Shown piece after piece: positions 2,593-40,553 of a stretch of 40,855 nucleotides of DNA. Numbering within the stretch: position 1 is the first letter of the stretch; every line of letters begins with the position of its first letter. The DNA is from Longimicrobiaceae bacterium (GTDB taxonomy: Bacteria; Gemmatimonadota; Gemmatimonadetes; Longimicrobiales; Longimicrobiaceae), in contig JBPCIT010000265.1 in the NCBI GenBank assembly GCA_051006015.1, positions 1-40,855 on the forward strand, given 5' to 3'. The position numbers and the translations under genes were made by a program. The notes beneath the pieces were generated by a model. It saw only the letters and a program-made list of their open reading frames with translations. It searched no databases and was not told the DNA's origin.

Positions 2593-3273
2593 GGATTCCA
2601 CTGCACCTTGGGCGGCGGCATACTGGAATGCGGCCGCGGCGGTTGCAGCCGACGCGGCGCGCTACGCGGAGTTCGATGGCGATCTCGAACGAGTTCCTGC
2701 CCTTCCTCTGTGGATGTGCCAATGGTCGGGCCTCGGCTGCAGCTATCGCGCACGCTGCGATTCTCTGCTATATTTTCGTCGGACCGGGTTGTAGCATCGC
2801 CCGGGTTGCGCTCGGCACCAGCATCAGTTACTTCCTCTACTGGACCGCCGCGCCGGCGTTCGCACTCCGCCAGTCCGGCGGCGATCTGCAGGAGCTGCTC
2901 TCTCGATGGGCTGATCCTGCTGCGTTTCGCGGCGATGGTTTGCCTGCACAGAGTACTCGACACTGCTCCTCCCATCGAGCAGCTCGGACTCTGGGGCGGC
3001 ATCCTCCCAAGCCACCTATACAGGAGCGGTCTCTCTTGCGCCGTCTTCGCGCTTCTTCCCTTCGCCCTTCGTGCACACCCGTCCGTTGTCCGCATGCGTC
3101 GTAGCCTGCATCCTCTCCGGCAGCACTCCCGCGGTTAGCAGAGTGGCGAGCCTATCGCGCACCCCGCTCACCGGCGGCGAACCGCCGCCGGAACAGTTCA
3201 CGCCTCAGCTCCAGATGGGATCCGATCCTGGAGTTCCGGCGCACCACGCCCTCCCCTCGTTCCTGAGGCCGCG

Positions 3274-4551
3274 ATGAGCCCACTGCGCTTCTGCATGATC
3301 ACCACCTTCTATCCCCCCTACCACTTCGGGGGTGATGGAGTGAACGTGCAGCGCTTCGCGCGCGGGCTCGCGCGGCAAGGCCATGAGGTCGTGGTGATCC
3401 ATGATGTGGACGCCTACAACGCGCTGCACGATGGTCCGGAACCGCCAGCTCCGCAGGAGCAGGACGGCGTAGAGGTGGTGCGGCTGCGCAGTCGCCTGGG
3501 TGCACTCTCGCCGCTGCTGACGCACCAGCTCGGCCAGCCCATCGTTCACGGCGGGAAGATCCGGCAGATCCTCGATCGCGGGCGCTTCGATGTCATCCAC
3601 TATCACAACATCTCATTGGTAGGCGGACCCGGCATCCTCGCGGCGGGCAAGGCGCTCAAGGTCTACACGGCGCGCGAGCACTGGCTGGTCTGCCCCAGTA
3701 ACGTGCTCTGGCGACACGGGCGCGAGCTCTGCACCGGCCGCGAATGCACCCGCTGCGTGCTGAACCACGGCCGTCCACCGCAGCTCTGGCGCTACACCGA
3801 CTATCTCGAGCAGCAGCTCGATCACGTGGACCTCTTCATCGCCCTGAGCGAGTTCAGCCGGGAGAAGCACCGGGAGTTCGGCTTCCATCGCCCGATGGAG
3901 GTTCTTCCCAACCTCCTCGCAGATACGGCTGCGGAGGTTTCGATCCCTGCCGGCGATCCGCCGAACGAGCGCCCGTACTTTCTCTTCGTCGGCCGCATCG
4001 AGCGCATCAAGGGGCTGGATGATGTGGTGCCGGTCTTCCACTCCTATCCGGACGCGGACCTGCTGATCGCCGGTACCGGCGACCACGCGCCGGTGATCCG
4101 GAAGCTGGCAGCCGGCAACCCGCGGGTGAAGTTCCTGGGCCAGGTTCCTCCGGAGGAGCTGGCACGCTACTACCACCACGCGCTCGCTCTCCTGGCGCCT
4201 TCCGTGTGCTATGAAACCTTCGGCGTGATCCTGATCGAGGCCTTCCGGCTCTCCACCCCGGTAATCGCCCGCCGTATCGGTCCCTTCCCGGAGATCGTCG
4301 AGCGCTCTGGCGGCGGCGAGCTCTTCTCGACGCCGCAGGAGCTGGTGGCGGCGATGCGGCGCCTGCAGGCGGACGCCGCGCTGCGCCGACGCATGGGCGT
4401 GGCGGGACACAACGCCTTTCTCCGGAACTGGTCCGAGTCTGCGGTCATTCCGCGCTATCTCGAACTCGTCCGCCGGACCGCCGAGCGGAAGGGCAACTCC
4501 CGCGTCGCCGCGGCGCTGGAGGGCGAGCGGACGCTGTCTGCGGCTTCCTGA
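3274..4551 (+). CDS. GT4-family (GT-B fold) glycosyltransferase.
   Basis: 425-aa ORF. N-terminal FYPPYHFGG with a HEVVV acceptor-domain pattern. C-terminal donor-binding E-x7-E motif (CYETFGVILIEAF...PVIA). Confidence 0.85.
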   Translation: MSPLRFCMITTFYPPYHFGGDGVNVQRFARGLARQGHEVVVIHDVDAYNALHDGPEPPAPQEQDGVEVVRLRSRLGALSPLLTHQLGQPIVHGGKIRQILDRGRFDVIHYHNISLVGGPGILAAGKALKVYTAREHWLVCPSNVLWRHGRELCTGRECTRCVLNHGRPPQLWRYTDYLEQQLDHVDLFIALSEFSREKHREFGFHRPMEVLPNLLADTAAEVSIPAGDPPNERPYFLFVGRIERIKGLDDVVPVFHSYPDADLLIAGTGDHAPVIRKLAAGNPRVKFLGQVPPEELARYYHHALALLAPSVCYETFGVILIEAFRLSTPVIARRIGPFPEIVERSGGGELFSTPQELVAAMRRLQADAALRRRMGVAGHNAFLRNWSESAVIPRYLELVRRTAERKGNSRVAAALEGERTLSAAS

Positions 4552-4569
4552 GGACCGCTTCGACGGCAG

Positions 4570-5217
4570 ATGCACGACGACCTCCACAGGCAGGCCTCGA
4601 GCGCTCATTATTTTCAACAGGAGTACGACGATCTACCCCGCTTCATCTCCTACTTCTACCAGGTCGATCTCGTCAGGAGCCTGCAGCCACGGAGCGTTCT
4701 CGAGATCGGCGTCGGCAACAAGACGGTCGCGAATTACCTTCGGCAGAATGGAATCGAGATCAGCACCTGCGACATCGACGCGGAGCTGCACCCCGATTAT
4801 GTCGCCGACGTACGCACCCTCCCCTTCCCCGACGACAGCTACGACGTGGTGATGGCGTGCGAGGTGCTGGAGCACCTCCCCTGGTCCGATCTGGAGCGGG
4901 CGCTGCGTGAGCTGCACCGAACGACCCGACGCTTCGTACTGCTTTCCCTTCCCCACGCTTCCGCCGCTCTGGAGGTCGTCCTCCGGAATCCTCTGCCCCC
5001 GCGGATGCTGAAGACACCGTTCTTCGGCGTCTCGGTGCGGATGCCGCTCTTCTTCACGAGGACCGCTTCGACCGGCGAGCACCACTGGGAGATCGGACGG
5101 AGGAGCTTCCCCGCCCGCCGGATCCGCGCCGCATTGAGGAAGCATTTTACGATTCGCCGCGAGGTCCGGCCCGCTCTGCACTCCTACCACCACTTCTTCG
5201 TTCTCGAGAAGAGATAG
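4570..5217 (+). CDS. class I SAM-dependent methyltransferase.
   Basis: 215-aa ORF. Motif I VLEIGVGNK (GxGxG), acidic motif II CDID, motif III VVMACEVLEHL. Confidence 0.8.
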   Translation: MHDDLHRQASSAHYFQQEYDDLPRFISYFYQVDLVRSLQPRSVLEIGVGNKTVANYLRQNGIEISTCDIDAELHPDYVADVRTLPFPDDSYDVVMACEVLEHLPWSDLERALRELHRTTRRFVLLSLPHASAALEVVLRNPLPPRMLKTPFFGVSVRMPLFFTRTASTGEHHWEIGRRSFPARRIRAALRKHFTIRREVRPALHSYHHFFVLEKR

Positions 5218-5310
5218 CCCGCCGCCAGACGAGCCGCGGAGCGGAGGCGCGCAGGGTGGCCGCGTGCCCGCCAGAGCGCCCGTTGAGCGGATTCCAAGCA
5301 GTGTGGGTCG

Positions 5311-6267
5311 TCAGCTCCCCGAACGCAGCCGCTCTCGCAGGAACTGCAGGATGGTGCAGGTCGAGGCGCGGAAGCGCGGCTCGGCGCTGAACTCGGGCAC
5401 GCTGTGCCCCACCCCGGGCAGCTCGATCAGCGTAGCAGGCACGCCGGCGGAGCGCAGAGAGTCGCGCATGGAACGAGACTGGCGGATCGGCACCACCTCG
5501 TCCGCCGTGCCGTGGATGAGCAGGAAAGGAGGGTCGCCCGCGCTCGCGTGCACCGCGGGAGAGGCGAGCAGCGCCCGCGCCGGGTCGGCTTCCGGACGAG
5601 CTCCCAGGAAGTTCTCCACCATCGAGCGCTGCCCGGAATCGAGCGCACCTGCGGTGCGGATGTCGTGCGGGGCTGCGATCGCGACCACGGCGCTCACCGC
5701 GGGCGAGACGTCTCGCAAAGGGCAGGCGCCGTCGAGCCCTTCGACTTCCGCGGCCGTGCCGAGCATCGCCGCGAGGTGCCCACCCGCGGAGCTGCCCAGG
5801 GCGGCAATGCGCGATGGATCGATGTCGTAGGTCGCGGCATTGGCGCGGAGCCACCGCACTGCGCAGCGCACGTCCTCCACCGCGGCCGGAAAGACGTTGC
5901 GAGGCGCCGCCACCAGCCGATAGCTCACCGACGCCGCCGCGTACCCCTGCCCCGCCAGAAGGCGCATGCTGGAATGATAGGCGCTCCTGTCGCCCGCGCT
6001 CCAGCCGCCACCGTGAATGAGCACCACCAGCGGGTGCGGCCCGACATGCTCCGGCCAGGCGATGTCCAGCCGCTGGACCTGCCCATCCATCTCCGCGTAG
6101 GTGACGTTCCCGGCCAGGTTGATGTCGGCCGGACCCGGCGTCCGCGGAATGCTGCACTCCCGGACGATCGCCATTGACTCGCCGCCCGCCTCGCCCGAGG
6201 TCATCGGCGGGGAGACCCCTGCACACGCGCTCAGCAGCAACAGAGCCGAGGCGAAGCTTTGCTTCAT
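5311..6267 (-). CDS. lipoprotein esterase/lipase, alpha/beta hydrolase (HGGG oxyanion hole, GSSAGG nucleophile elbow).
   Basis: Real start taken at the internal ATG (6265-6267), giving MKQSFASALLLLSAC with lipobox LSAC. HGGGW and GSSAGGHLAA motifs, and a C-terminal HGTADEVV region carrying the catalytic Asp/His. Its start abuts the stop of the upstream gene. Confidence 0.8.
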   Translation of the reverse strand: MKQSFASALLLLSACAGVSPPMTSGEAGGESMAIVRECSIPRTPGPADINLAGNVTYAEMDGQVQRLDIAWPEHVGPHPLVVLIHGGGWSAGDRSAYHSSMRLLAGQGYAAASVSYRLVAAPRNVFPAAVEDVRCAVRWLRANAATYDIDPSRIAALGSSAGGHLAAMLGTAAEVEGLDGACPLRDVSPAVSAVVAIAAPHDIRTAGALDSGQRSMVENFLGARPEADPARALLASPAVHASAGDPPFLLIHGTADEVVPIRQSRSMRDSLRSAGVPATLIELPGVGHSVPEFSAEPRFRASTCTILQFLRERLRSGS

Positions 6268-26442: not shown

Positions 26443-28401
26443 TTACGCGAGCTGCGCCATCTCGCTCTCCACCCGCTCCCACTCCTCCATACGCTGCTCG
26501 ACCATCTCCTGCAGCCGCGCTCGCTCAGCCGTCAATGCCGCCACCTGGTCGGGCGCGGTCGCCTCGAAGTAGCCTGGTTCGGAGAAGAGCCTGTCGATCT
26601 CGGCGATCCGTGCCTCGGCCACCTCGATCGCCGCCGTGAGTTCGTCGCGGCGCCTCTCGAGACCATTCCGGCGGGCGGCACCGTTAGCCTTCACGGCTCC
26701 CCGGCCCTGGGGAGCGGCAGGTCGCTTTCCGTTCTCCGGCGGCTCCTGCTTCTTGCCCTTCCTGTCCTCCCGGCGAGCCTTGAGGACCACGGTGTCGGCA
26801 TCGAGGTGGTCGTCGCCGCAGGCGTGGACGTACTCCTCGTAGGTGCCGTGATAGTCGCGGATCCCGTCGCGGCTGATCTCGACGACGCGGGTGGCGAGCT
26901 GGCTCACGAACCAGCGGTCGTGGGAGACCAGGATCAGGGTGCCCTCGTAGCTCTGCAGGCCGGCGACCAGCGCCTCGATGGACTCGAGGTCGAGGTGGTT
27001 GGTGGGCTCGTCAAGCACCAGCAGGTTGGGCTGCTCCATCGCCAGGCGGCTGAAGACGAGCCGGGCGGCCTCCCCTCCGGAGAGAGCGCTCAGGCGCTTC
27101 TCGCCGTCGTCGCCGGAGAATAGCATCATACCCAGCTGCCCCCGCACGAAGCCACGATCCTTGCCGGGGCAGAACTCCCAGAGCCACTGCTCCGCCGTGC
27201 GGTCGAGGCCCTCGAGCTGCTCGTGGTGGTCCTGCGCGAAGTAGCCGGGCCGGGCCTCGTAGCCCCACTCGACCTCGCCGTCATCCGCCTGCAGCTCGCC
27301 GATCACGATCTTGAGCAGCGTGGACTTGCCGATGCCGTTCGGCCCCATGATGACCAGCCGCTCGCCACGGTTGACCTGGAGGTCCACGCCGTGGAGCACC
27401 TCGTTCTCCCCGAATGCCTTCTTGAGACGGGTGATCTTCAGCACCTCCCGGCCGCTCGGCCGGCGCTGCACGAAGCGGAACTTCGGGTAGCGGCGCGAGC
27501 TGCCGGGCAGCTCCTCGAGCTCGTCCGCCTTCTTCTCTATCATCCGCAGCTTGCTCTGCGCCTGCCGCGCCTTGCTCGCCTTCGCCTTGAAGCGGTCCAC
27601 GAACTTCTGGTGGTGGGCGATCTCCTTCTGTCGCCCCTCGATCTCCTTCTCCCGCCGCTGGCGGTCCTCCCGCTTCTGCTCCAGAAAGGCCGCGTAGTTG
27701 CCCTTGTAGAGGGTGACGGTCTGGTAATCCACGTCCAAAATGCTCGTGGCGACGTTGTCGAGGAAGCGGTGATCGTGGGAGATGACCACCACCGGGCCGG
27801 CGAAGTCCTGGAGGAACTTCTCCAGCCAGCGGATGGAGAGGATGTCGAGGTGGTTCGTGGGCTCGTCCAGCAGCAGGACGTCCGGGGTGCTCGCCAGGAC
27901 CTGGGCGAGGAGCACCCGCAGCTTGAAGCCGCCGGAGAGGGTGGAGAGCGGCTGGCGGTGCACCTCCGCGGGCAGGCCAAGGCCCTCTAGGATGGTCGCG
28001 GCGCGAGCCTCGGCCGTGTAGCCGTCCAGCCGTTGCACCGTCTCCTCGAGCTCGGAGAATCGGTCCGCGTCGAAGTGCTCGTGCGCCCGGGCGAGAAGCG
28101 CCTCCTTCTGGACGAGGGCTCGCCAGAGCTCGGGGTTGCCCATCAGGGTTACGCCCAGGACCTCCTCGTCTTCATAGAGGAACTGATCCTGACGCAGCAC
28201 CCCCAGCCGCAGCGACTTCGGGAGCGAGACGCTACCCTCAGTGGCCTCGGCCTCGCCACTCAGAATGTTGAGCAGCGTGGTCTTGCCGGACCCGTTGGCC
28301 CCGACCAGCCCGTAGCGCTCGCCGGGGTTGAGCTGAAACGATGCGTCGGCGAACAGAGTGCGGTCGCCGAACTCCTTTGCGAGATTGGAAAGAGAGATCA
28401 T
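26443..28401 (-). CDS. ABC-F family ATPase (two tandem ABC domains, no TMD; Uup/EttA-like) with a C-terminal coiled-coil tail.
   Basis: 652-aa ORF. Two Walker A sites (GANGSGKTT, GPNGIGKST), two LSGG signatures, a linker between them, and a charged C-terminal helical extension. Confidence 0.9.
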   Translation of the reverse strand: MISLSNLAKEFGDRTLFADASFQLNPGERYGLVGANGSGKTTLLNILSGEAEATEGSVSLPKSLRLGVLRQDQFLYEDEEVLGVTLMGNPELWRALVQKEALLARAHEHFDADRFSELEETVQRLDGYTAEARAATILEGLGLPAEVHRQPLSTLSGGFKLRVLLAQVLASTPDVLLLDEPTNHLDILSIRWLEKFLQDFAGPVVVISHDHRFLDNVATSILDVDYQTVTLYKGNYAAFLEQKREDRQRREKEIEGRQKEIAHHQKFVDRFKAKASKARQAQSKLRMIEKKADELEELPGSSRRYPKFRFVQRRPSGREVLKITRLKKAFGENEVLHGVDLQVNRGERLVIMGPNGIGKSTLLKIVIGELQADDGEVEWGYEARPGYFAQDHHEQLEGLDRTAEQWLWEFCPGKDRGFVRGQLGMMLFSGDDGEKRLSALSGGEAARLVFSRLAMEQPNLLVLDEPTNHLDLESIEALVAGLQSYEGTLILVSHDRWFVSQLATRVVEISRDGIRDYHGTYEEYVHACGDDHLDADTVVLKARREDRKGKKQEPPENGKRPAAPQGRGAVKANGAARRNGLERRRDELTAAIEVAEARIAEIDRLFSEPGYFEATAPDQVAALTAERARLQEMVEQRMEEWERVESEMAQLA

Positions 28402-28605: not shown

Positions 28606-28971
28606 ATGACTCCCAGGACGATTCTGCTGATCGAGGGCCACGGGGACACACGCGAGGTGTACGGGGAGATCCTCCGCCGCGCCGGCTACCGCGTCCTGGC
28701 AGCGAAGGATGGAGGCGAGGGCGTACGACTGGCGCGCGAGCATCTGCCGGACCTGGTCGTGACCGATCTCGCGCTGCCCGTCGTGGATGGCTGGCATGTG
28801 ACGGGATTGCTCAAACAGCACGCTCCAACGGCGCACATCCCGGTGATCGCCATCACGGCGAACACGCAGAACTTCTACCGCGGCCGCGCCGAGGCTGTGG
28901 GGTGCGACGCGTTCCTGGAGAAGCCCTGCCCGCCCGCTCTCCTGCTCGAAACCATCGAGCGCCTGCTGTAG
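28606..28971 (+). CDS. single-domain CheY-like response regulator receiver.
   Basis: 121 aa from the ATG at 28606 (MTPRTILLIEGHGD...). Conserved acidic pocket, phospho-acceptor D in VVTDLALP, T/K in later loops. The 312-aa track ORF is an upstream artefact. Confidence 0.85.
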   Translation: MTPRTILLIEGHGDTREVYGEILRRAGYRVLAAKDGGEGVRLAREHLPDLVVTDLALPVVDGWHVTGLLKQHAPTAHIPVIAITANTQNFYRGRAEAVGCDAFLEKPCPPALLLETIERLL

Positions 28972-29738: not shown

Positions 29739-30350
29739 TTACACTGCGGGCGAGGTGAGTTGGCCGATGATGCCCCGAATGGCCGCGTGGTACTCCGTGA
29801 TGTCGAAGTGACCGGGATCGACCAGTGCTTGCACCGCGCACCCGTTGATGAGGCTCACCGCAACCGCGGCAAGGCCGTCCGGATTGACTTCGCCAACTGC
29901 TGCGGACTCGGACCGAAGAACCTCTTCGGCCACGGCGCGGAGCGCCGAGCGGTAGCGCTCGAGCGCGGCGCTGATATTCTTCCCGATGGCCGGGTCCCGC
30001 GTGCCCAGCGTTCAGTACTCGAAGAACAGCGGGGTCCTGTGCGGCTCGTGAGAAAGGCGGTCCATCTCCGGCAGCAGGAGCGAGCGCAGCCGATCCGCGG
30101 GTTGGCGGCTCTGTGCTACATCGTCGGGGATGTGCAGGGTGAGAGTGGTCGCCAGCACCCAGTCGAGCAGGGCTCGCACCAGCTGGTCCTTGGTCTTGAA
30201 GTGGAAGTGCACCAGACCGTGGCTCACCCGCGCTTCGGCCGCAATCGACCGCACCGTCAACCCACCGACCCCCACCCGTGAGGCCACGTCAAAAGCAGCC
30301 TTCAGGAGCTGCTGACGACGCTCTTCCTCGGACGCTTTCTTTCCCGGCAT
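29739..30350 (-). pseudogene. TetR-family transcriptional regulator interrupted by an in-frame TGA (30012-30014), probably TGG(Trp) to TGA.
   Basis: N-terminal HTH (LTVRSIAAEARVSHGLVHFHFKTKDQLV) in the 112-aa ORF. The same frame continues after the TGA into the 64-aa ORF (FFEY-stop-TLGTRDPAIGKN...). Combined length of 204 aa is typical for TetR. AGGAGAGGAG upstream of the ATG. Confidence 0.75.
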
Positions 30351-30460: not shown

Positions 30461-30485
30461 CGGTCATCATTGACCGTATGGTCAA
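30461..30485. promoter_or_regulatory. operator-like overlapping palindromes CGGTCA-TCAT-TGACC-GTAT-GGTCAA in the divergent TetR / small-membrane-protein intergenic region.
   Basis: Perfect 6-bp arms TTGACC...GGTCAA (30470-30485) and CGGTCA...TGACCG (30461-30476). The same half-sites recur at 35557-35604. Confidence 0.5.
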
Positions 30486-30603
30486 TATAGGCTATACTTC
30501 ATTCGCCACCTGGTCAACACCTGCCCACCTGGCCCCTATCCCAGCAGTAGGACGCCCTCTGCGGCGCTCTCCGCCGCACCTGCGCTCCTGCGAAGGAGGC
30601 GTG

Positions 30604-30873
30604 ATGTTGTCATTTATCGGTTCCGCAATCGCGGCCGGCGCTGTGGTCTCACTCGGCGGCGTCAACCTCGACGCCGTGCTCGTGTACGGCCTCGTGGCGT
30701 TCGTGATCGGGCTGATCACGTGGAGCAAGTACAACGAGCCGGCCCTCTCGAACCCCTATCCGGAAAAGCGAACCGGCCACGATCTGTCGGAGATGGCCGG
30801 GAACAAGGAGGTCGGACCGCTCGTGGCGATCCCGGTGGTGGTTGAGGAGGTGCCGAATCGCAAGCGGCCGTAA
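30604..30873 (+). CDS. small membrane protein (two predicted TM helices), hypothetical; divergent from the TetR gene.
   Basis: 89 aa from the ATG at 30604 (MLSFIGSAIAAGAVVSLGG...LVYGLVAFVIGLITW), with AGGAGG 5 nt upstream. The longer track ORF starts inside the operator palindrome (ATGGTCAAT) and is probably an artefact. Confidence 0.5.
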   Translation: MLSFIGSAIAAGAVVSLGGVNLDAVLVYGLVAFVIGLITWSKYNEPALSNPYPEKRTGHDLSEMAGNKEVGPLVAIPVVVEEVPNRKRP

Positions 30874-30981
30874 GCGAGGGTTCTGAGTTACAACATGGCT
30901 TTGCCGCAGAGCCAGCTCCTCGCCGGCTCGGAGTGGGCATCGGGAGTGCACCACTACGCACCATAGACCTGGAGACAATCC

Positions 30982-31347
30982 GTGCTACCCTTTCGAACCA
31001 AGACGGCGCTTCGCATTGAGGACTTCCAGGTTCGGCTGACGGACCGCCCCGGATGGGTGTGGGGAACCGCACGCTTGCCCCAACAGGGGGAGGAGATCTT
31101 CTGTGCAGCCGGGATGGGGACGGTAACGGCATTGCACGGCAAGACGGGGGATGGCAGCCGACTCGTACAGATCGGGCTCGAAAACGCGGTGAGGCGTCCG
31201 TTCTTCGCGGCCGCATCCAACGTACTACTCGCACCGCTGAGCAACGTCATACCTGAGGATGTGCGATCCGGTGGGGAGGTCCCGCCAGCCACGACAGAGC
31301 CCACGGTGTGGCTCGGCGAGACGGCGGGCACGGCATACATCCGGTGA
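30982..31347 (+). CDS. hypothetical protein (lower GC3 than neighbours); doubtful.
   Basis: 121-aa ORF with GTG start and GGAGA upstream. GC3 is about 75% versus about 90% in flanking genes. No motifs. Confidence 0.25.
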   Translation: MLPFRTKTALRIEDFQVRLTDRPGWVWGTARLPQQGEEIFCAAGMGTVTALHGKTGDGSRLVQIGLENAVRRPFFAAASNVLLAPLSNVIPEDVRSGGEVPPATTEPTVWLGETAGTAYIR

Positions 31348-31821: not shown

Positions 31822-32091
31822 CTACACGATGGTGTTGAGTGCGGTCCGAACACGGTGGCGCTCCGCTTCCGCCCAGACGACATGGTCCTCGATGCGGTTC
31901 AGCGTGCCGGTGGTGTCATGGGCCATCTCGCCGGGATCTGAGCCGGGGCCGTCGTTGAACGCATCCACGAACGCGGTCAGCGCGGCCATATACTCCGCGG
32001 CGGTCGTGCGCGCCTCCGGCTGGTGGGCCGCCACCTGCCGCTCGAACTGGAGCCGGAGCGTTTCTATCGTTGCCTTTTCTGCGTCGAACAT
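31822..32091 (-). CDS. small hypothetical protein (89 aa).
   Basis: ORF with GGGAGA 4 nt upstream of the ATG and high GC3. No recognisable domain. Confidence 0.45.
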   Translation of the reverse strand: MFDAEKATIETLRLQFERQVAAHQPEARTTAAEYMAALTAFVDAFNDGPGSDPGEMAHDTTGTLNRIEDHVVWAEAERHRVRTALNTIV

Positions 32092-32159: not shown

Positions 32160-35100
32160 TTACGGTTGCTTCCTACGACGCGGCAGCCAGACGCGGAAGG
32201 TGCTCCCCCGGCCGAGCTCACTCTCGACCTCGACGTCGCCGCCGAGCAGCCGGCTGAACTCCCGGGCTGCCGCAAGCCCGATCCCCATGCCGCCGAATGC
32301 GCGGGTCGTGGCGTTGTCGGCCCGCCAGAATCGCTCGAAGATGTGGGCCTGGTCCTCGGGCGCGATTCCGATGCCCGTATCGCGGACCTCGAAGACAACC
32401 CGCTCCCCCTCCGCTCGTACCTCCAAATTGATCTCTCCGCGCTCAGTATACCTGACGGCGTTGCCGCACAGGTTGACGAGGATCTGGCGGGCCTTGTCGG
32501 CATCCATATCCAGCTCGACGGCCTCGTCTGGAAGGCTCAGGACCAGCGCGAGATCCTTTGCCTCCGCACTGGGCTCGACCAGCACCTTTGCCTCGCGCGC
32601 GATCATTCTCGCGTCCACCTTCTCGTACCGCACCGTCTCGCAACCCTCGTCCAGCTTTGCGAAGGTGAGGATCTCGTCGATCATGGAGGCGAGATGCCAG
32701 CCGCACACCTTGATCCGCTCGATCTTTTCCACCTGCGGTGTCGTGAGCGGCCCATCGAGGTCGAGTAGCTCGGAATAGCCGAGCATCGCAGTGAGCGGGG
32801 TACGGAATTCGTGCGACATCGTCGCCAGAAAGCTCCCCTTGAGCAGGTTCGCCGATTCGGCCGCGATCTTCGCCTCCCGCAGCTCCTCCTGGACCCGCCG
32901 TCGCGCGGTGTTGTCGACGAAGGTGAGCACGGCGCCATCGATCTCGCCCTCGGCGTAACGGTACGGGTTGATGCGGAGGATGTACCACTCGCCGGCGTCG
33001 CTCGACACCTCACGCTCGATCCGCTCCTGCGAGGTGAGCACGCTCTGCGCATCGGCGACCAGGTCGGGGTAGTCGAGCCGGTGGGTGATGTGGGCGAGCG
33101 GACGGCCCTGGTCCGTGGCGACGAAGTTGAAGAGCGTCGCGACCGACGGGGTGAACCGCCGGATCCGCATCGCGCGGTCGAGAAAGATGGTGCCGATCTC
33201 CGTGGATTCGATCAGGTTCTGGAGATCGGCGTTCGTCCGCTTCAGCTCCTCGATCGAGCTCTGGTGCTCCTGGTTGATGGTGGTGAGCTCCTCGTTGATG
33301 GACTGGATCTCCTCGCGGCTGGTCTCCAGCTCCTCGGCCGCCGCCTTCTGCTCCTCGTTGACCGACAGCAGCTCCTGGTTGGCCGACTGGAGCTCCTCCA
33401 CCGTCCGATCGCGCGCCGCGATAGTGGATTCGAGCTGCTCCTCGATCCGACGCAGCTCCTCCTCCGGGCGGGCGACCGCTCGCGGGGGGGGGGGATCCTG
33501 CAGCGCCTCTCCCTCGGCCGCCGGCTCGGTCTCAAGCAGCGCCTCTTCCTCGAAGAGGACCAGGGCGAACCTACCCGCTCTCTCGTCTCCTACCGGTGGG
33601 TTCACCCGCAGGCATAGCGGGGCACCGCCGTTGAGGCGGAGGTGGCGGGTGGTCGGCAGCCCCTTCGCAAAGGCCTGGTAGAGCGCCGTGCGCAGCTCCA
33701 TTCGCAGCTCGGGCGGGGCCAGGTCCATCAGGTCGTGGCTCGGCTCGCCCTCCGCCAGGTGCAGGTAGTCGCCGGCCCGGCCGGAGAGGTGGACCACCTC
33801 GAGCCGCTCGTCCACGACCAGGCTCGCCGGCGCGTAATGCTCGAGCATCCGCAGATGGACCGGCCCGTACGCGAACCGGTGCGGGCGGGACATCTCGATG
33901 GCATCCGCCGGTCGGCCGCCGGGCCGGGAAGGCGGATCCGCGGCCGAGAGCCGCGGCAGGACCCGGTGCGGGGTGGCGTTGCGGCGGTAGATCCGCGACG
34001 CCCGCGCGACGGGCACGAAGCGCCCGCTCTCCCCCGCCGACTCCGCCGAGCCGAGGAAGAGCAGCCCCTGCGACCGCAGCGCATAGTGGAAGGTCGCGAT
34101 CGCCTGTTCCTGAGCCGCCGGCTGGAGGTAGATGAGCAGGTTCCGGCAGCTGATCAGGTCGAGCCGCGAGAAGGGTGGGTCGTGCAACACGTTGTGGACG
34201 GCGAAGAGCACTCCCTCGCGCAGCGGCTTCTTGATCCGGTAGCCTCCCGCCTCCTGGGTGAAGTAGCGGCGGAGCCGCTCGGGCGGGATCTCCGCCACGG
34301 CAGAGGCCGGGTAGATGGCCGCGCGGCCCCGCGCGTAGCCCTTCTCGTCGATGTCGGTGGCGAAGATCTGGATCTGCGGCGGGTGCTCCAGGGTGGCCGC
34401 GTGCTCGTTCGACAGGATGGCGATCGAGTAGGCCTCCTCGCCCGTGGCGCACCCCACCACCCAGACACGCACCGCGTCATCCGGTCCCTTGCCCTCGAAG
34501 AGCGCAGGAATCGCCTCCGCCAGCGCGCTGAACGCCTCCGGATCCCGGAAAAAGGAGCTCACCGAGATCAGCAGGTCCCGCACGAGCGCCCGGGCCTCGG
34601 TCTCACTCGCCCGCAGCATCGGCAGATAGTCCTCGAGGGTCGCCGCACCATTGAAGCGCAGCCGCCGCTCGAGCCGGCGCAGGATGGTGGAGGGCTTGTA
34701 CAGGCTGAAGTCGTGGCCGGTCTTGCCACGCAGTACGGCGAAGATCTGGGCCAGCTGCGCCTGGGTGTCCCCGGGAGGCGAGTCGACCTCGAGGGGCGAC
34801 GGCATCCGCCGGAGGCGAAGCAACTCGGCGGGGACCCGCGCCGACGGTAGCACCAGGTCGATCTGCCCGGTCGCGATCGCGCTCTCCGGCATCCCGTCGT
34901 ACTCGGCTTCGTCCGGCGACTGGGCGACCGTGATGCCACCGCACTCCTTGATGTGCCGGGTCCCCGACGCGCCGTCGCTGCCGGTGCCGGAGAGCACAAC
35001 GCCGACCGCATCCGGTCCGCACGCCTCGGCGAGTGTGCGGAAGAAAAGGTCGATGGGCGAATGCTGCGGTCCGTCGCCGCGCTCCTGCAGGCGGAGGGTC

Positions 35101-35501
35101 GCGTCCTGTATCGTGAGGTCGTGGCCCGGCGGGATGATGTAGATGTGGTCGGGCTCCACCGTCGTCGTCCCGGTGACCTGCGTCACAGGGACCGAAGTCC
35201 GGTCCTGCAGGAGCGCGGCGATGCGGCTCTCCCGCTCCGGGTCCAGGTGCATGATCACCACGTATGCCATGCCGCTGTCGGCCCGCACCGACTGGAAGAA
35301 GAGCTGCAGCGCCTTCAGCCCGCCCGCCGAGGCACCGATCCCCACGACCGTCAGCGGGCCCCGATCTCCTACATCGGGGCTGCTAGCCTGTTCGGGAAGG
35401 ACCGCCTGAGTCATGGCTGCCTCGAAGGAAGTGAGGGCCGCTCGCGCGGCCGAGGCCAACGGTGACCATCGATCAGAAGGCGCTCCACTTCGGAGAACCA
35501 T
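32160..35501 (-). CDS. multidomain chemosensory fusion: CheB-type methylesterase + CheR-type methyltransferase + coiled-coil/PAS + histidine kinase (HisKA + HATPase_c). Start possibly at the ATG at 35414.
   Basis: GIGASAGGLKAL...YVVIMHLDP (CheB catalytic domain); VRVWVVGCATGEEAYSIAIL (CheR SAM-binding); long heptad region (ELQSANQELLSVNEEQKAAAEELETSREEIQSINEEL); FLATMSHEFRTPLTAM (H-box); LVNLCGNAVRYT, VRDTGIGI, GGMGIGLAAAREF (N, G1, G2 boxes). Confidence 0.9.
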   Translation of the reverse strand: MVLRSGAPSDRWSPLASAARAALTSFEAAMTQAVLPEQASSPDVGDRGPLTVVGIGASAGGLKALQLFFQSVRADSGMAYVVIMHLDPERESRIAALLQDRTSVPVTQVTGTTTVEPDHIYIIPPGHDLTIQDATLRLQERGDGPQHSPIDLFFRTLAEACGPDAVGVVLSGTGSDGASGTRHIKECGGITVAQSPDEAEYDGMPESAIATGQIDLVLPSARVPAELLRLRRMPSPLEVDSPPGDTQAQLAQIFAVLRGKTGHDFSLYKPSTILRRLERRLRFNGAATLEDYLPMLRASETEARALVRDLLISVSSFFRDPEAFSALAEAIPALFEGKGPDDAVRVWVVGCATGEEAYSIAILSNEHAATLEHPPQIQIFATDIDEKGYARGRAAIYPASAVAEIPPERLRRYFTQEAGGYRIKKPLREGVLFAVHNVLHDPPFSRLDLISCRNLLIYLQPAAQEQAIATFHYALRSQGLLFLGSAESAGESGRFVPVARASRIYRRNATPHRVLPRLSAADPPSRPGGRPADAIEMSRPHRFAYGPVHLRMLEHYAPASLVVDERLEVVHLSGRAGDYLHLAEGEPSHDLMDLAPPELRMELRTALYQAFAKGLPTTRHLRLNGGAPLCLRVNPPVGDERAGRFALVLFEEEALLETEPAAEGEALQDPPPPRAVARPEEELRRIEEQLESTIAARDRTVEELQSANQELLSVNEEQKAAAEELETSREEIQSINEELTTINQEHQSSIEELKRTNADLQNLIESTEIGTIFLDRAMRIRRFTPSVATLFNFVATDQGRPLAHITHRLDYPDLVADAQSVLTSQERIEREVSSDAGEWYILRINPYRYAEGEIDGAVLTFVDNTARRRVQEELREAKIAAESANLLKGSFLATMSHEFRTPLTAMLGYSELLDLDGPLTTPQVEKIERIKVCGWHLASMIDEILTFAKLDEGCETVRYEKVDARMIAREAKVLVEPSAEAKDLALVLSLPDEAVELDMDADKARQILVNLCGNAVRYTERGEINLEVRAEGERVVFEVRDTGIGIAPEDQAHIFERFWRADNATTRAFGGMGIGLAAAREFSRLLGGDVEVESELGRGSTFRVWLPRRRKQP

Positions 35502-35556
35502 GCCAATCGGAACCGACGCGGCTGCGCAGCAGCGGGGTGCGAGGGCTTCCCATCTA

Positions 35557-35604
35557 TTGACCGGATGGTAAATACAAGCTAGCTTAGATTGTCCAGATGG
35601 TCAA
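35557..35604. promoter_or_regulatory. large imperfect palindrome with two copies of the TTGACC-N4-GGTCAA-type operator (TTGACC-GGAT-GGTAAA and TTGTCC-AGAT-GGTCAA) flanking a perfect AAGCTAGCTT core. Lies in the divergent region between the CheBR-kinase gene and a small secreted-protein gene.
   Basis: Sequence ATTGACCGGATGGTAAATACAAGCTAGCTTAGATTGTCCAGATGGTCAATGATTG. The half-sites match the operator at 30461-30485. Confidence 0.5.
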
Positions 35605-35731
35605 TGATTGCAGCAGAGGCATCAGCAGGAGAGAATTCCCCACGTTGATGCAAATGCGCTGGACCGCTGAGATGCTGGGGTGGGAAGCACTCCGCTTTCC
35701 GTCCGCCGTACCTCACCAAGGGGGAGACATC

Positions 35732-36016
35732 ATGCGTTCCATGCTCATTGTCGGGCTTCTGTTCACTCTGGCCACGGTGCCCGCCGTGCAGGCGCAACAG
35801 GTAGCAGTTCCGGCTTCGGCAGAGCAACCCGCTCCGCGCGTCGTAGAGGTTACGATGCCCAGGACCGAGGTGGATCTGACCCCGGCTCGGGCCGCGGCGG
35901 TTCAGTCCAGGGAGGCAGTCACGGCGGAGGCCGCGCGGGAGATGAGCGCACGCACCCTCCTTGCAGTCATTGGGGCGGCCCTGGTTGTGGTAGCCCTGGT
36001 CGTGTTACTAAACTGA
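35732..36016 (+). CDS. small exported/membrane-anchored protein (N-terminal signal peptide, C-terminal hydrophobic anchor), hypothetical.
   Basis: 94 aa from the ATG at 35732 (MRSMLIVGLLFTLATVPAVQAQQ... ending LLAVIGAALVVVALVVLLN), with GGGGGAG 5 nt upstream. The track ORF start at 35597 lies inside the operator and is probably spurious. Confidence 0.5.
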   Translation: MRSMLIVGLLFTLATVPAVQAQQVAVPASAEQPAPRVVEVTMPRTEVDLTPARAAAVQSREAVTAEAAREMSARTLLAVIGAALVVVALVVLLN

Positions 36017-36306: not shown

Positions 36307-39300
36307 ATGATCTGCTCGCGCTGCGGCCGGGAGAACGTGCGGTCGGCCCGCTTCTGCAACAACTGCGGAGGCGACCTGGGGCCGACGTGCCCGCACTGCG
36401 GTTTCGAGAATCCACCTGAATCGAAGTTCTGTGGCGGCTGCGGCCACCGTCTGCAGGAGGTGCACGCGTCGGAGGCGGAGGGCGAGCGCCGGCAGATCAC
36501 GGTGCTCTTCTGCGACCTGGTAGGCTCGACGGAACTCTCTCAGCAGCTCGACCCGGAGGACCTGCGCGATGTCATCGCGGCGTACCAGAGTGTCTGCGGC
36601 GAAGCGGTGGCGGCCCACGAAGGATATGTCGCGCAGTACCTCGGCGACGGCATCATCGTCTACTTCGGCTACCCGCGTGCCCAGGAAGACGATGCCCAGC
36701 GCGCCGTTCGCTGCGGGCTGGACATGCTGCGGCGGGTGCAGGTGGTCGCGGCGCAGATACGCAAGGACGTCACCCTGGCCGTGCGCGTCGCCGTGCACAC
36801 GGGGCGGGTCGTGGTGGGGCCGGTGGGCGCGGGCGACCGCCAGGACCGGATCGCGCTGGGCGACGCACCCAACATCGCCGCGCGACTGCAGGGGGTGGCG
36901 GAGCCCGGCACGCTGGTCGTGAGCGACGCGACCTGGGGCATCGTGAGCGGCTACTTTACCGGCCGCTCCATCGGCGAGGTGCAGCTCAAAGGCATAGCCC
37001 AGCCGATGGAGGTGTGGCTAATCGACGGCGAGACGGCATGGCGCGACCGCCTCGATGCGGCCGGCAGGCTGGCTCCCTTCGTCGGCCGCGAGCGAGAGCG
37101 ACGCCTCCTCGAGGAAGCCTGGCAGGCGGCGCAGCGGGGCGAGACGGGTTTCATCCTGCTGCGTGCGGATGCGGGCGTGGGCAAGTCGCGGCTCGGTCGG
37201 CTCTTTCGTGATCAGGCCGAGGCCTCCGGTGCGGCGGTGCTGGTGGCCCGGGCTTCCCCCTATAACAGCGACAGCCCGTTCTACCCGATCATCGAGCTGC
37301 TCGCGCAGCGGTTCGGTCTCGAACCGGGGCAGTCGGCGGACGAACAGCTGGCACGCCTCGAGGGCGCGCTCCGCGAGCTGCATCTGGACCCGGCCGTGGT
37401 CGTACCCTTCCTGGCGCCGCTGCTGGCCATCCCCGCCGGCGACCGCTACGCGGCTCCGGATCTCTCGCCCATACGGCGCCGCGCCCGGACCATGGAGGTG
37501 ATCGCCCATTTGTTCGGCGCCCTGGCCGAACAGACGCCGACGCTGCTGGTATTCGAGGACCTGCACTGGGCCGACACCTCGACCGCGGAGCTGCTCGAGC
37601 TGATCGTCGATACGCTGTCCGGCGTTCCGTTGCTGGGCCTGATCGCGGCGCGGCCGGATCTCGACGCATCCTGGGGCAAGGGCACCCGCCTGCAGTGCCT
37701 CGATCTGACGAAGCTGGACCCGGCACAGGCGGAGGCGCTCGCGCAGAGCGTCGCGGGCGGCAAGGCGCTGCCCGGCAAGGTGCTGCGGCAGATCGTGGCG
37801 CGCTCGGACGGCGTGCCGCTCTTCATCGAGGAGATGACGCGGGCCGTGCTCGAGTCGGGCGTGCTCCGCGAAGGCGCGGCAGCGTGGGAAGCGCGAGGGC
37901 CGGTGCCGGAGGATCTGATCCCGGCGACCGTGGCCGCGTCGCTGACCGCGCGCATCGACCGGCTCGGCACCTCGCGCGCCACCGCGCAGCTGGCCGCGAC
38001 CATCGGCCGCGAGTTCGGCTTCGCACTGCTGCGCGAGGTGAGCGAGCGCGACGAGCCGACCCTCCGCCAGGACATCAAGCGGCTAACGGACGCAGGCCTG
38101 GCGTGGGCAACAGACGAGTCAGGTGCCGGCACCTTCATGTTCAAGCACGCGCTGGTGCGCGACGCGGCCTACGAATCGCTGCTGCGCGCCACCCGCCAGA
38201 GCTATCATAGCCGCATCGCTGCCGCGATGCGCAGCAACATGGCCCAGTTCGCGGCGGAGCGGCCCGACCTGATCGCGCACCACCTGACCCAAGCCGGCGA
38301 GTACCAGGATGCGGTGGGCTTCTGGGAGACCGCCGGCCAGCAGGCGCTGCAGAGGTCGGCCATGCACGATGCGAGCGTCGACTTCCAGCGGGCGATCGGC
38401 TGCCTGAGCAACCTGCCCACGACGCGCGAACACCGGGAGCACGAGCTGGAACTGCAGCTCCAGCTCGCCCCGGTGCTCATGGCAGTGTATGGGTGGGCAG
38501 CGGTGCAAGTCGAGGAATCGTGCGAACGCGGCCGCGCGCTGGCGGAGGAGCTCGAGCGCTACGACCGCATCTACCCGCCGCTCTGGGGCCTCTGGACCGT
38601 CTACTTCCTGCGCGGTGAGCTCGAGCCGGCCATGTCTGCAGCCGAGGCGGTGCAGCGGATGGCGGAGGCTTCCGGGGTACCGATGATCCAGATTACAGGT
38701 CGCCATGCCACGGCCTATACGCTGCTCTACCGAGGCGAGATCGAGCGGGCGCTCGAAGAGGCGAACGCCGGTCTGGCGCTCTTCGATTTCGAACAGGAGA
38801 AGGCGCTGACCAGTATGTTCCAGCTCTCCTCGTCCGTCTGCCTGCGCACGGTGAGAGCGCATGCGCTCTCGATGCTGGGGCACGTCGCCGAGGCAGAGGC
38901 GGAGTGGGAGCGTATGGTGCAGCTCGCCCGGGATCTGCAGCACCTGCCCACCCTGGCCGCCGCGCTCGCCTTCTTCCTGCACGGCTACGGCTACCGCCAC
39001 TCGCACCTCCACCGGATCGAGCGGCTGTGCGAGGTCGCGGACGAGCTGCGCAGCCTGTGCAAGGACGAGGGGTTCTTGCTCTGGCTCGCGGTCGCGGAGA
39101 ACTATCGCGGCGTGATCGGGCTCGCCCTCGGCGAGGAGGATGCCCGCACCCGCATGCAGGAAGGCCTCGAGCTCTTCCTTCAGACCGGGACCCGCGTCAC
39201 CCTCGTGCTCGTGTACGTGATGATGGCCGAAGCGCTGTACGAGCTGCACGAGGACGAGGAAGCCTTCCGATTGCTGGACGAGGCCGAGGCGGAGATGGAG

Positions 39301-39600
39301 GCGCGCGGAGAGCGGCTGAACGCGCCCGAGATCTGGCGGGTACGCGGCCGCCTGCTGGCCCGGCGCGGCGACGCCGCCGCGGCCGAGGCGGCCTACCGCC
39401 ACGCGCTGCACTTCGCCGGCCAGCAGAAGGCGCGCTCCCTCGAGTTGCGCGCCGCGCTCGACCTGTACGACCTGCTGGCCACGAACGGGCGCGTCGAGGA
39501 AGGCCGTGCCCGACTCGCGGCTAGCCTCGATTCCCTCCCGGAGGGACTGGACCGCCCGGAACCGGCACGCGCGCTCGCCATCTTGGGTGGGTCCTCCTGA
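36307..39600 (+). CDS. signalling STAND protein: N-terminal double zinc ribbon + class III adenylate/guanylate cyclase domain + AAA/NB-ARC-like NTPase + C-terminal TPR-like helical repeats.
   Basis: CSRCGREN...CNNCGG...CPHCGFEN...CGGCGH (two ribbons); ITVLFCDLVGSTELS, AVHTGRVVVGPVG (cyclase homology domain, metal-binding Asp and transition-state residues); LLRADAGVGKSRL (Walker A) and LLVFEDLHWAD (Walker B); about 450-aa helical repeat C-terminal region. No HTH seen. Confidence 0.85.
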   Translation: MICSRCGRENVRSARFCNNCGGDLGPTCPHCGFENPPESKFCGGCGHRLQEVHASEAEGERRQITVLFCDLVGSTELSQQLDPEDLRDVIAAYQSVCGEAVAAHEGYVAQYLGDGIIVYFGYPRAQEDDAQRAVRCGLDMLRRVQVVAAQIRKDVTLAVRVAVHTGRVVVGPVGAGDRQDRIALGDAPNIAARLQGVAEPGTLVVSDATWGIVSGYFTGRSIGEVQLKGIAQPMEVWLIDGETAWRDRLDAAGRLAPFVGRERERRLLEEAWQAAQRGETGFILLRADAGVGKSRLGRLFRDQAEASGAAVLVARASPYNSDSPFYPIIELLAQRFGLEPGQSADEQLARLEGALRELHLDPAVVVPFLAPLLAIPAGDRYAAPDLSPIRRRARTMEVIAHLFGALAEQTPTLLVFEDLHWADTSTAELLELIVDTLSGVPLLGLIAARPDLDASWGKGTRLQCLDLTKLDPAQAEALAQSVAGGKALPGKVLRQIVARSDGVPLFIEEMTRAVLESGVLREGAAAWEARGPVPEDLIPATVAASLTARIDRLGTSRATAQLAATIGREFGFALLREVSERDEPTLRQDIKRLTDAGLAWATDESGAGTFMFKHALVRDAAYESLLRATRQSYHSRIAAAMRSNMAQFAAERPDLIAHHLTQAGEYQDAVGFWETAGQQALQRSAMHDASVDFQRAIGCLSNLPTTREHREHELELQLQLAPVLMAVYGWAAVQVEESCERGRALAEELERYDRIYPPLWGLWTVYFLRGELEPAMSAAEAVQRMAEASGVPMIQITGRHATAYTLLYRGEIERALEEANAGLALFDFEQEKALTSMFQLSSSVCLRTVRAHALSMLGHVAEAEAEWERMVQLARDLQHLPTLAAALAFFLHGYGYRHSHLHRIERLCEVADELRSLCKDEGFLLWLAVAENYRGVIGLALGEEDARTRMQEGLELFLQTGTRVTLVLVYVMMAEALYELHEDEEAFRLLDEAEAEMEARGERLNAPEIWRVRGRLLARRGDAAAAEAAYRHALHFAGQQKARSLELRAALDLYDLLATNGRVEEGRARLAASLDSLPEGLDRPEPARALAILGGSS

Positions 39601-39629: not shown

Positions 39630-40553
39630 ATGTCTGACGACACCGCTCGCCTCCCCTGGTCCACCGAGCAATGGGCGGCGCTCCGCTCGGTGGTCCAGGA
39701 GTCCGCCCGCAAGGCACGGGTCGCGAGTTCGTTTCTGCCGCTGTACGGGCCGCTGCCGCGCGACCAGGTGACGGTGCCGGCACTCACCATGGAAAGCCCG
39801 GAGCTCGGCGACCGCCAGCGGGGCGAGCCACCCGCGCGCCTCGAGATCAACGACGCCGAGACGCTGCGCCTGACGACGATCGCCGCTGATGTGTACCTCA
39901 AGACGGCCGAGGCGGCCGACCCCGATCTGGAAGCGGCCAAGGCGATGGTGGGCCGGGCCGCGGACGTGCTCGGCCGGCTCGAGGACGCGATCGTCTTCAA
40001 CGGCCAGCCGGAGGCCGCACAGGCGCCCGTCCGGGAGGATGGCTCGCCCTTCGTCGTGCCGGTGATCTACACGGTGCGCGGCGGCCAGCAGCATCCGGGT
40101 CTGCTCGATACTGAGCTCGAGGTGGCGGTGCCCTTCCGCGAGCTGGACGGACGGAGCGAGACGCTGGTGAGCGGGGTCGTCGAAGCGATCGAGATGCTCG
40201 AGGGCCGGGGTCACTATGGCCCGTTCGCGTGCGTGCTGGGGCACGAGCTCTTCCTGGCCGCCAACACGCCGAACCGCAACTCGCTGGTGCTGCCCAGCGA
40301 CCGCATCCTGCCCTTCCTGGAGGGGCCGCTCCTGCGCTCGAGCACCCTCCCGGCGAACCTTGGGGTGGTGGTGGCGCTCTCCGGCTCGCCGATCGACCTG
40401 GTGGTCGCCACGGATCTGGACGTACAGTTCGTTCAGCTCACGCTCGAGCCGCGCTACGTGCTGCGGGTATCGGAGCGCTTCGTCCTGCGCATGAAGGAGC
40501 CGGACGCCGTCTGCCGGCTAGTGGCGGAGCCTGCCTCCGGCGACCGGGGCTAG
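39630..40553 (+). CDS. encapsulin nanocompartment shell protein (family 1, Linocin_M18 / HK97-fold).
   Basis: 307-aa ORF. N-terminal LPWSTEQWAALRSVVQESARKARVASSFLPLYGPL matches the conserved encapsulin N-terminal helix pattern (L-T-E-x-W-x-x-I-D...A-R-x-x-L-V-G-R-x-F). C-terminal half aligns in pattern with Thermotoga/Mycobacterium encapsulins (ILPFLEGPLLRS...DLVVATDLDVQFVQLTLEPRYVLRVSERFVLR). No phage structural genes nearby. Confidence 0.8.
   Translation: MSDDTARLPWSTEQWAALRSVVQESARKARVASSFLPLYGPLPRDQVTVPALTMESPELGDRQRGEPPARLEINDAETLRLTTIAADVYLKTAEAADPDLEAAKAMVGRAADVLGRLEDAIVFNGQPEAAQAPVREDGSPFVVPVIYTVRGGQQHPGLLDTELEVAVPFRELDGRSETLVSGVVEAIEMLEGRGHYGPFACVLGHELFLAANTPNRNSLVLPSDRILPFLEGPLLRSSTLPANLGVVVALSGSPIDLVVATDLDVQFVQLTLEPRYVLRVSERFVLRMKEPDAVCRLVAEPASGDRG

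Follow-up and report, generated by a model that had tools for sequence, protein, structure and literature searches.

A two-site module between a sensor kinase gene and s94

The window analysed here is a stretch of 40,855 nucleotides (contig JBPCIT010000265.1, assembly GCA_051006015.1) from a Longimicrobiaceae bacterium of the phylum Gemmatimonadota. In its right-hand part, the gene for a CheB-CheR-PAS histidine kinase and a small gene, s94, diverge from an intergenic region containing the element under study, which we call module B. About 5 kb away a similar element, module A, lies between a TetR-family repressor gene (TetR-S) and the small genes s89a and p121 (Table 1). Module B extends over 50 bp (35556-35605) and comprises two 18-bp sites, B1 and B2, placed 32 bp apart from start to start, with a palindromic core between them. 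A first-pass annotation, made from the letters of the sequence, had picked out at this place a second, duplicated copy of an operator motif, which is confirmed with coordinates moved by one base, and a perfect core between the two sites, which is indeed present. The same annotation had described a 48-bp palindrome beginning at 35557; of this, the symmetry stands but the extent does not, the element being an imperfect palindrome of 50 bp whose 25-nt arms are 72% complementary. A more fitting description of module B is a direct duplication of an 18-mer that is palindromic in its own right.

The two 18-mers of module B agree with the site ATTGACCGTATGGTCAAT of module A (30469-30486) at 16 and 15 of 18 positions, the same degree of agreement that had been read from the sequence previously. 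When the window was searched for ATTGACCNNNNGGTCAAT (ATTGACC-N4-GGTCAAT) with at most one mismatch, exactly three matches were found, namely B1, B2 and 30469-30486, against a mean of 0.00 and a maximum of 0 in 100 dinucleotide-preserving shuffles of the window. At up to three mismatches the window contains 7 matches, where 0.52 are expected. Relative to the family consensus of these palindromes, ATTGACCA-NN-TGGTCAAT, B1 and B2 have one mismatch each and the module A site A1 has none. Their length of 18 bp falls within the range of TetR-type operators (palindromes of ~15-20 bp). Two longer open reading frames (ORFs), which begin at an ATG inside the motif (30478.. and 35597..) and had been noted as spurious, are present as described; the one at module B is confirmed as spurious by sister strains (contigs 98-99.9% identical to the window), which break it by 1-2-nt indels.

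Table 1. Positions of the operator-like sites and of the genes around modules A and B. Coordinates refer to the window.
Feature	Position	Strand	Sequence or product	Remarks
Operator B1	35556-35573		ATTGACCGGATGGTAAAT	1 mismatch to ATTGACC-N4-GGTCAAT
Core between B1 and B2	35576-35585		AAGCTAGCTT	perfect 10-bp palindrome
Operator B2	35588-35605		ATTGTCCAGATGGTCAAT	1 mismatch to ATTGACC-N4-GGTCAAT
Kinase gene	32160..35414	-	1084 aa	Pfam CheB_methylest, CheR, PAS_10, HisKA, HATPase_c; putative conserved target of module B
s94	35732..36016	+	94 aa	signal-peptide-like N-terminal segment, C-terminal hydrophobic anchor
Cyclase-STAND gene	36307..39600	+	1097 aa	zinc-ribbon / adenylate-guanylate cyclase / AAA_16 (STAND-like) / TPR protein (Pfam)
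s89b	31822..32091	-	89 aa	directly downstream of kinase gene; called as a gene in L001-L005
Module A	30469..30518		A1 ATTGACCGTATGGTCAAT (30469-30486); A2 ATTCGCCACCTGGTCAAC (30501-30518)	A2 weak, 32 bp after A1
TetR-S gene	29739..30350	-	203 codons	TetR-family repressor, TetR-S clade; TetR_N + TetR_C_6
s89a	30604-30873	+	89 aa	hydrophobic N-terminal half
p121	30982-31347	+	121 aa	with s89a, putative divergent target operon of TetR-S (30604..31347)

Module B is conserved upstream of orthologous kinases

The kinase was used as query against 185,579 species, each represented by a single genome; the species of the window is not in this collection, and the best match is 73% identical. The scan yielded 35 Gemmatimonadota loci with the kinase start on the contig (from Longimicrobiaceae, Gemmatimonadales and others; 57-73% identity), along with 43 loci from other phyla; loci and contigs are referred to below by L numbers. 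The two-site module was found 5' of the kinase gene or its operon in 20 of the 35 Gemmatimonadota loci with at most 6 mismatches over 28 positions, and in eight more with 7-8 mismatches. In L040, L045, L046 and L056 the left site and the -10 element are recognisable and the right site is degenerate, the best spacing being 33 bp with 9-11 mismatches. The spacing is exactly 32 bp in 32 of 34 modules when the Gemmatimonadota loci and the window are taken together, and the loci that the kinase scan returned from other phyla, 711,043 bp in all, contain no module.

An alignment of module B with 27 of these modules, whose kinases are 58-73% identical, gives a mean of 1.34 bits per position over the 50-bp module, and 0.17 and 0.20 bits per position in the two 30-bp flanks of the 28 aligned modules. 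In the orientation of the kinase gene the consensus reads rTTGACCAnyyGgnCAAT AyAnnnTAnCTTgt ATTTaCCrnyTGGTCAAy. The counterpart of B1 in this orientation is the right-hand site ATTTACCnnnTGGTCAAT that is conserved in the 27 orthologous modules. Within the central 14 bp, conservation peaks at module positions 21, 25, 26, 29 and 30 (2.0-2.4 bits; 28 modules); these correspond, on either strand, to the T, A and T specified in TAnnnT, which stands at a constant 17 bp from each TTGACC. Two overlapping -10 elements would account for these peaks, a pattern that a pure repressor site would not predict. The inner half-sites, situated in the spacer of one promoter and near the start of the other, reach 0.6-2.4 bits per position; as RNA polymerase makes few base-specific demands there, their conservation has the pattern of an operator.

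Module B itself has 2 mismatches of 28 in total, among the lowest of the recovered modules, and looks maintained. Its conserved target appears to be the kinase and not s94. The earlier proposal that the site serves the small secreted-protein gene is not borne out, since the module lies 5' of the orthologous kinase gene in 27 other genomes and s94, at its position beside module B, is specific to this lineage; the chemosensory kinase, which had been offered as a possible target, gains support from the same 27 genomes.

Two further modules were encountered as orphans, at L034 633-683 (33-bp spacing) and L061 273-322 (32-bp spacing). They have 3-4 mismatches and no adjacent TetR gene; ~950 bp from them, the other strand carries a conserved ORF of 162 aa.

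A predicted bidirectional promoter with overlapping -10 hexamers

On the + strand of module B, TTGACC (35557-35562, the outer half of B1) is followed after 17 bp by TAGCTT (35580-35585). The - strand repeats this arrangement, with TTGACC at 35604..35599 (GGTCAA on the + strand, the outer half of B2), 17 bp and TAGCTT at 35581..35576. The two opposite-strand TAGCTT hexamers of the core have the TA step at 35580-35581 in common, and the element shows the layout of bidirectional promoters with a shared -10, in which opposite-strand hexamers share bases and have their -35 elements at 16-18 bp. The most plausible reading of the core AAGCTAGCTT is as a pair of overlapping -10 hexamers, with the outer half-sites probably doubling as -35 elements, and that of the palindrome as promoter symmetry plus operators. 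We consider it likely that module B combines a compact, symmetric bidirectional promoter with a pair of repressor-binding sites. Bidirectional promoters with a shared -10 are documented in bacteria, commonly with starts 18, 10 or 23 bp apart, and those studied include the TetR-family acrR/acrA promoter (PMC12825309).

In the switch that we propose, the rightward arm (TTGACC as -35, TAGCTT as -10) would start transcription near 35592, toward s94, and the leftward arm, with the same two hexamers, would start near 35569, toward the CheB-CheR-PAS histidine kinase gene. With the usual 7 bp from -10 to start, the sharing of the TA step places the predicted starts ~23 bp apart. Each putative -35 sits within an 18-bp palindrome, the palindrome centres being 32 bp apart, or about three helical turns, and each palindrome would be bound by one dimer of a Gemmatimonadota-specific TetR-family clade with a BetI-like C-terminal domain. 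Each palindrome spans one promoter's -35 together with the region in which the opposing promoter would start, so that occupancy should silence both directions, and an inducing ligand would free the repressor from the module. Judging by the genes with which such modules are paired (Mla-like transporters, small membrane proteins), the signal may, speculatively, have to do with lipids or the envelope.

Several points weigh against this interpretation. A generic promoter scan called no promoter at module B because TAGCTT agrees with TATAAT at only 3 of 6 positions; the scan uses the E. coli -10 consensus, which may not suit Gemmatimonadota sigma factors, and the promoter reading of module B rests on comparative data. 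A strict search for TTGACC-N17-TAnnnT in L014-L062, L106-L112 and the window returned 86 hits, of which 62 have an inner half-site matching at 5 or more of 7 positions. The string is thus nearly confined to modules; either ordinary promoters are much weaker matches to it, or the cassette is unusually near consensus. Its scarcity outside modules means that there is no promoter-only set by which the -35 role could be separated from the operator role. Module B is invariant among the sister-strain contigs, which is little informative given their near-identity (98-99.9%). Promoter activity, start sites, TetR binding, the choice of the binding paralog and the ligand are all inferred from sequence. 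In addition, no TetR gene adjoins module B in the window, where the divergent gene is s94.

The symmetry could in principle have a different origin, namely a palindrome that acts through an RNA hairpin, a terminator or a DNA cruciform, or one that is a copy of a dispersed repeat, and to this we attach very little credence. A 62-nt RNA folds at -18.3 kcal/mol with a moderate z of -2.6, as a structured element might, but the complementarity of the arms across 28 modules is 0.548 against 0.528 for shuffled partners, a value reached by 152 of 2000 shuffles. No T-run follows the stem, no terminator was called, no Rfam match was found at E up to 0.1, and with the element taken as a promoter most of the stem would lie upstream of either start. 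A structured RNA or intrinsic terminator was rejected on the lack of arm-to-arm covariation, T-run, terminator call and Rfam match. A dispersed (REP/MITE-like) repeat was rejected, as the 40.8 kb of the window hold two copies, each at a divergent promoter, and such a repeat fits poorly with the orthologous positions, sharp boundaries and TetR-gene association of the modules and with their absence from 711 kb of other phyla. The first-pass annotation had itself pointed to a repeat element as the outcome that would undo its proposal; modules were found at promoters in Gemmatimonadota loci, with none in the 711 kb examined elsewhere.

Association with TetR genes and assignment to two paralogous clades

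In the full set of retrieved loci, a TetR start codon directly adjoins 25 of the modules that have 6 mismatches or fewer. At about 28 of the 35 kinase loci a divergent TetR gene lies directly upstream of the kinase, encoding a protein 50-60% identical to that of the window, with the module in between. The 18-bp motif is very probably a TetR-family operator, and the earlier claim to this effect is supported by the 25 modules that adjoin TetR gene starts in related loci. In L025 there is no nearby TetR gene, and TTGACC-17-TAGGTT is kept 5' of the kinase gene with the inner half-sites lost, making this locus the only clean natural control for operator versus promoter. L054 and L055 have neither a TetR gene nor a module.

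The TetR proteins concerned belong to two separate clades. The TetR-S clade contains proteins 65-81% identical to the window TetR, with the recognition helix VSHGLVHFHF or LSHGLVHFHF, and the kinase-adjacent proteins make up the TetR-K clade, with the recognition helix (V/L)SHALVLFHF. The contexts of TetR-S were taken from contigs encoding TetR-S homologs; a metagenome scan with the intact TetR returned 4 loci, none of them informative. In L014, L020, L106, L110 and L112 the TetR-S orthologs are divergent from a pair of genes for 86-92-aa and 109-121-aa proteins, and a two-site module of a distinct S-type (GTTGACCAAGTGGCTnAT GAAGTATACCCTAT ATTGGnCAnnTGGTCAAT) is kept between TetR-S orthologs (65-81%) and the small-gene pair. 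Module A of the window scores 73 bits by the S-type matrix. For module B, taken in the direction of the kinase gene, the K-type matrix gives 75 bits (leave-one-out mean 67) and the S-type matrix 21 bits, and S-type modules score 21-64 bits by the K-type matrix. The inner half-sites vary by type, yet all appear to be degenerate versions of ATTGACCA, and the difference between the matrices probably reflects mainly descent. By this measure module B is the ortholog of the kinase/TetR-K module. The architecture of the modules, their conservation, their co-location with TetR genes and this assignment to paralogs are properties of the sequences themselves. The adjacent TetR, which had been taken as the simplest regulator of module B, is accordingly reduced to one candidate, as B descends from a TetR-K operator.

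In the regions 3' of the s89a/p121-like pair, a gene for a cold-shock-domain (CSD) protein lies a few small ORFs away in L014 (2625-2834), L110 (805-1014) and L112 (7012-7221); it is absent from the corresponding position in the window. KaiC-like double-ATPase genes recur near the TetR/kinase loci (L023 8314-9774, - strand; L020 1-222; L106 4770-6245).

Module A and a nonsense allele of TetR-S

Module A has the same 50-bp two-site layout as module B, including a weak second site, A2, that the first reading of the sequence had overlooked. Its -10 hexamers are TATACT on the + strand (30493-30498) and, overlapping it, TAGCCT on the - strand (30494..30489). The + arm, TTGACC-17-TATACT, is directed toward the 89-aa gene s89a and scores 10/12 in the generic promoter scan, and the - arm, TTGACC-17-TAGCCT, points at the TetR gene. 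Transcription from the two arms is predicted to start near 30505 (+) and 30482 (-), again ~23 bp apart. The module, which begins at 30469, lies between the TetR gene start (30350) and the divergent target, the placement expected of a divergent TetR operator. Neither s89a nor p121 has a family match, and s89a has no homology to s94. The suggestion of a regulon of two small envelope proteins does not hold as a natural class, since s89a and s94 are unrelated.

Codon 113 of the TetR-S gene is TGA (30012-30014). The same codon is TGG in L002, L005, L006 and L007, which come from other samples of the same species, and TGA in L001, which is 99.84% identical to the window and stems from an independent sample. 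Populations with the TGA are represented by the window and by sample ERR15133371. The TGA is a genuine strain-level W113-to-stop allele that leaves the N-terminal 112 residues, and the interruption reported in the first-pass annotation is a real nonsense mutation by comparison with the TGG of four sister-strain contigs. Recoding of TGA as tryptophan was considered and rejected, as s94 ends in TGA and sister strains carry TGG.

The closest solved structure to the window TetR is 2gfn, at a distant E = 1e-9. Just to the left of the TetR gene lie a stand-alone response-regulator gene (28606-28971, + strand, 121 aa, called in L001) and an ABC-F-type double-ATPase gene (26443-28401, - strand).

Candidate repressors of module B

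In the history that we propose, the TetR-K gene is no longer adjacent to the kinase gene in this genome, and s94, which stands where relatives have the TetR-K gene, would have taken over the repressor's promoter arm. The repressor at module B would then be either an unlinked TetR-K or the TetR-S paralog 5 kb away, which is nonsense-truncated in this strain. We find it quite conceivable, if somewhat short of an even chance, that a TetR-K ortholog encoded outside the window represses module B and that TetR-S controls module A only. About 28 of 35 related genomes pair the kinase with a K-clade TetR, and module B retains the K-type features ATTTACC and GGACAAT. In L023, where the divergent neighbour of the kinase module is a KaiC-like ATPase gene, a K-clade TetR persists 8.5 kb from the module without being adjacent to it. 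Relatives also carry several paralogs of the clade (two on one contig in L022, and two in L017), and P0007 and P0010 lie on one 5.78-Mb contig. Set against this, the 32 kb on the left and the 5 kb on the right of the kinase gene show no TetR-K gene, and no TetR-K remnant lies beside module B; to its right, a lenient tblastn search gave only noise (E ~0.05, in a 1.1-kb target and on the wrong strand).

That TetR-S (29739-30350) is instead the single repressor of modules A and B, so that its TGA would derepress s89a-p121, the kinase and s94 together, is a possibility that we are inclined to doubt. The 40.8-kb window encodes no TetR other than TetR-S, whose gene lies 5 kb from module B; both clades use degenerate versions of ATTGACCA, and the 21-64 bits of S-type modules by the K matrix make cross-recognition plausible. 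Among kinase loci with no adjacent TetR gene, two keep a recognisable module and share their contig with a clade member, those of the window (5 kb) and L023 (8.5 kb); L025, L054 and L055 have neither. The good preservation of module B (2/28 mismatches) suggests that something still binds it. However, module B is K-type by descent (75 versus 21 bits), no CheBR kinase gene was detected within up to 10 kb on either side (less at contig ends) of TetR-S orthologs in five other genomes, and the nearby TetR of L023 is of the K clade, which favours an unlinked TetR-K. The S and K clades also differ consistently in the recognition helix (VSHGLVHFHF versus (V/L)SHALVLFHF), at two positions that we take to correspond to the DNA-contacting Pro39 and Tyr42 of TetR(D). 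It is improbable, in our judgement, that TetR-K has been lost and the palindromes are unbound relics, leaving a constitutive bidirectional promoter only. The absence of a TetR-K gene at the locus would fit this, L025 exemplifies such a promoter-only state, and a very recent loss would leave decay not yet visible; module B nevertheless has 2/28 mismatches, against 5 (L023), 6 (L044) and 13 (L025) in other modules without an adjacent TetR gene.

Other paralogs of the same TetR clade are also found with the cassette before other genes. A same-clade TetR and cassette precede an MlaE / ABC / MlaD / auxiliary-lipoprotein operon in L017 (10667-15180) and L028 (4289-8730), where TetR gene and operon are divergent and the two sites have the 32-bp spacing, an Oxidored_q6 gene in L017, and, in L023, a gene for a 944-aa protein with a response-regulator receiver domain. 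A more far-reaching proposal, which we consider unlikely, is that an expanded set of Gemmatimonadota TetR paralogs share ATTGACCA and the 50-bp cassette, that repressor gene and cassette have been duplicated jointly and joined to new partners, and that they form a cross-talking network, in which TetR-S has here taken over the kinase operator after loss of the kinase's own repressor gene. If this were true, the partners of the cassette would include the CheB-CheR sensor kinase, Mla-like lipid transporters, small membrane proteins and others, and the natural TGA allele would derepress the sensor kinase and the cyclase-STAND locus in one step.

Two details of these loci may be recorded here. In L028 the Mla-like operon sits between the TetR gene and the CheB-CheR kinase gene. 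In L017 the TetR-S paralog P0007 lies ~5 kb from resolvase, relaxase/TraI, NikA-like and MazE/PIN genes (700-5327), which suggests that this copy neighbours a mobile element.

Comparison with known TetR-regulated promoters

In the tetR-tetA system of Tn10, repressor and target genes are divergent, the operators tetO1 and tetO2 overlap the divergent promoters, and one repressor shuts both. The module in the related loci resembles this system in having two palindromic operators within a short region and a TetR gene divergent from the target. It differs in operator spacing (32 bp between centres here against ~30 bp for tetO1/tetO2) and in its unrelated operator sequences; each operator here contains a -35, the -10 hexamers overlap, and no repressor gene lies beside module B. 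The Tn10 TetR is a distant relative, the window TetR scoring 29.6 bits by the NCBIfam TetR equivalog, which has a cut-off of 265.

The acrR/acrAB promoter, of the bidirectional class described by Warman, Grainger and colleagues, is similar in its pseudo-symmetry, shared -10, divergent transcripts and TetR-family autorepressor, the predicted type here being that with 23 bp between starts. In this case the differences are that the starts of module B are predicted, that there are two full operators instead of one site, and that phylum and sequences are other; by the AcrR equivalog the window TetR scores 32 bits against a cut-off of 271. A third likeness is to the choline-responsive repressor BetI, in that the C-terminus of the window TetR matches Pfam TetR_C_6 ("BetI-type") and BetI is its best NCBIfam match. 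Its score is below the equivalog cut-off, however, no bet genes are nearby, and the putative targets are a sensor kinase, small membrane proteins and, in relatives, Mla-like transporters. An identity as BetI proper was rejected on this score (TIGR03384, 67 bits against a cut-off of 201.3).

The mechanism proposed here, a TetR autorepressor at a divergent promoter, is textbook, and its general interest is modest; what is new is the particular TetR family involved and the fact that it is paired with a CheB-CheR kinase throughout the phylum. To our knowledge, gene regulation in the Gemmatimonadota has hardly been studied by experiment, and in the literature on CheB-CheR-kinase fusions we found nothing relevant to their regulation. 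The comparison yields a sharply bounded 50-bp cis-element with a testable geometry of two candidate operators, two putative -35 elements and overlapping -10 elements. It also provides a clear candidate family of repressors, in a conserved pairing of TetR and CheB-CheR-PAS histidine kinase across the phylum. A natural experiment is offered by the window, in which the kinase module has lost its neighbouring repressor gene and the nearest paralog carries a nonsense allele in some strains and not in others.

Genes flanking module B

For the kinase, gene callers choose the ATG at 35415 as the start, which makes the protein 1084 aa long. The longer, 1113-aa form with a start at the ATG at 35501 was rejected, as this ATG is lost in L002 and the callers prefer 35415. 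Downstream of the kinase gene, s89b is probably part of the kinase transcript; it has no homolog in the other loci examined and no family match. On the other side of module B, s94 has GGGGGAG 8 nt 5' of its ATG and is called as a gene in 5 assemblies, with no Pfam or NCBIfam match. Homologs of s94 that are 47-48% identical occur in L017 and in L035, in the latter directly downstream of the kinase gene, a position that gives a weak hint of a functional link between s94 and the kinase. The cyclase-STAND gene that follows may be co-transcribed with s94 across a gap of 290 bp. It is followed in turn, after 29 bp, by a gene on the + strand (39630-40553) for a family-1 encapsulin shell protein with a Linocin_M18 domain, which scores 91 bits by NCBIfam encap_f1, slightly below the cut-off of 100.

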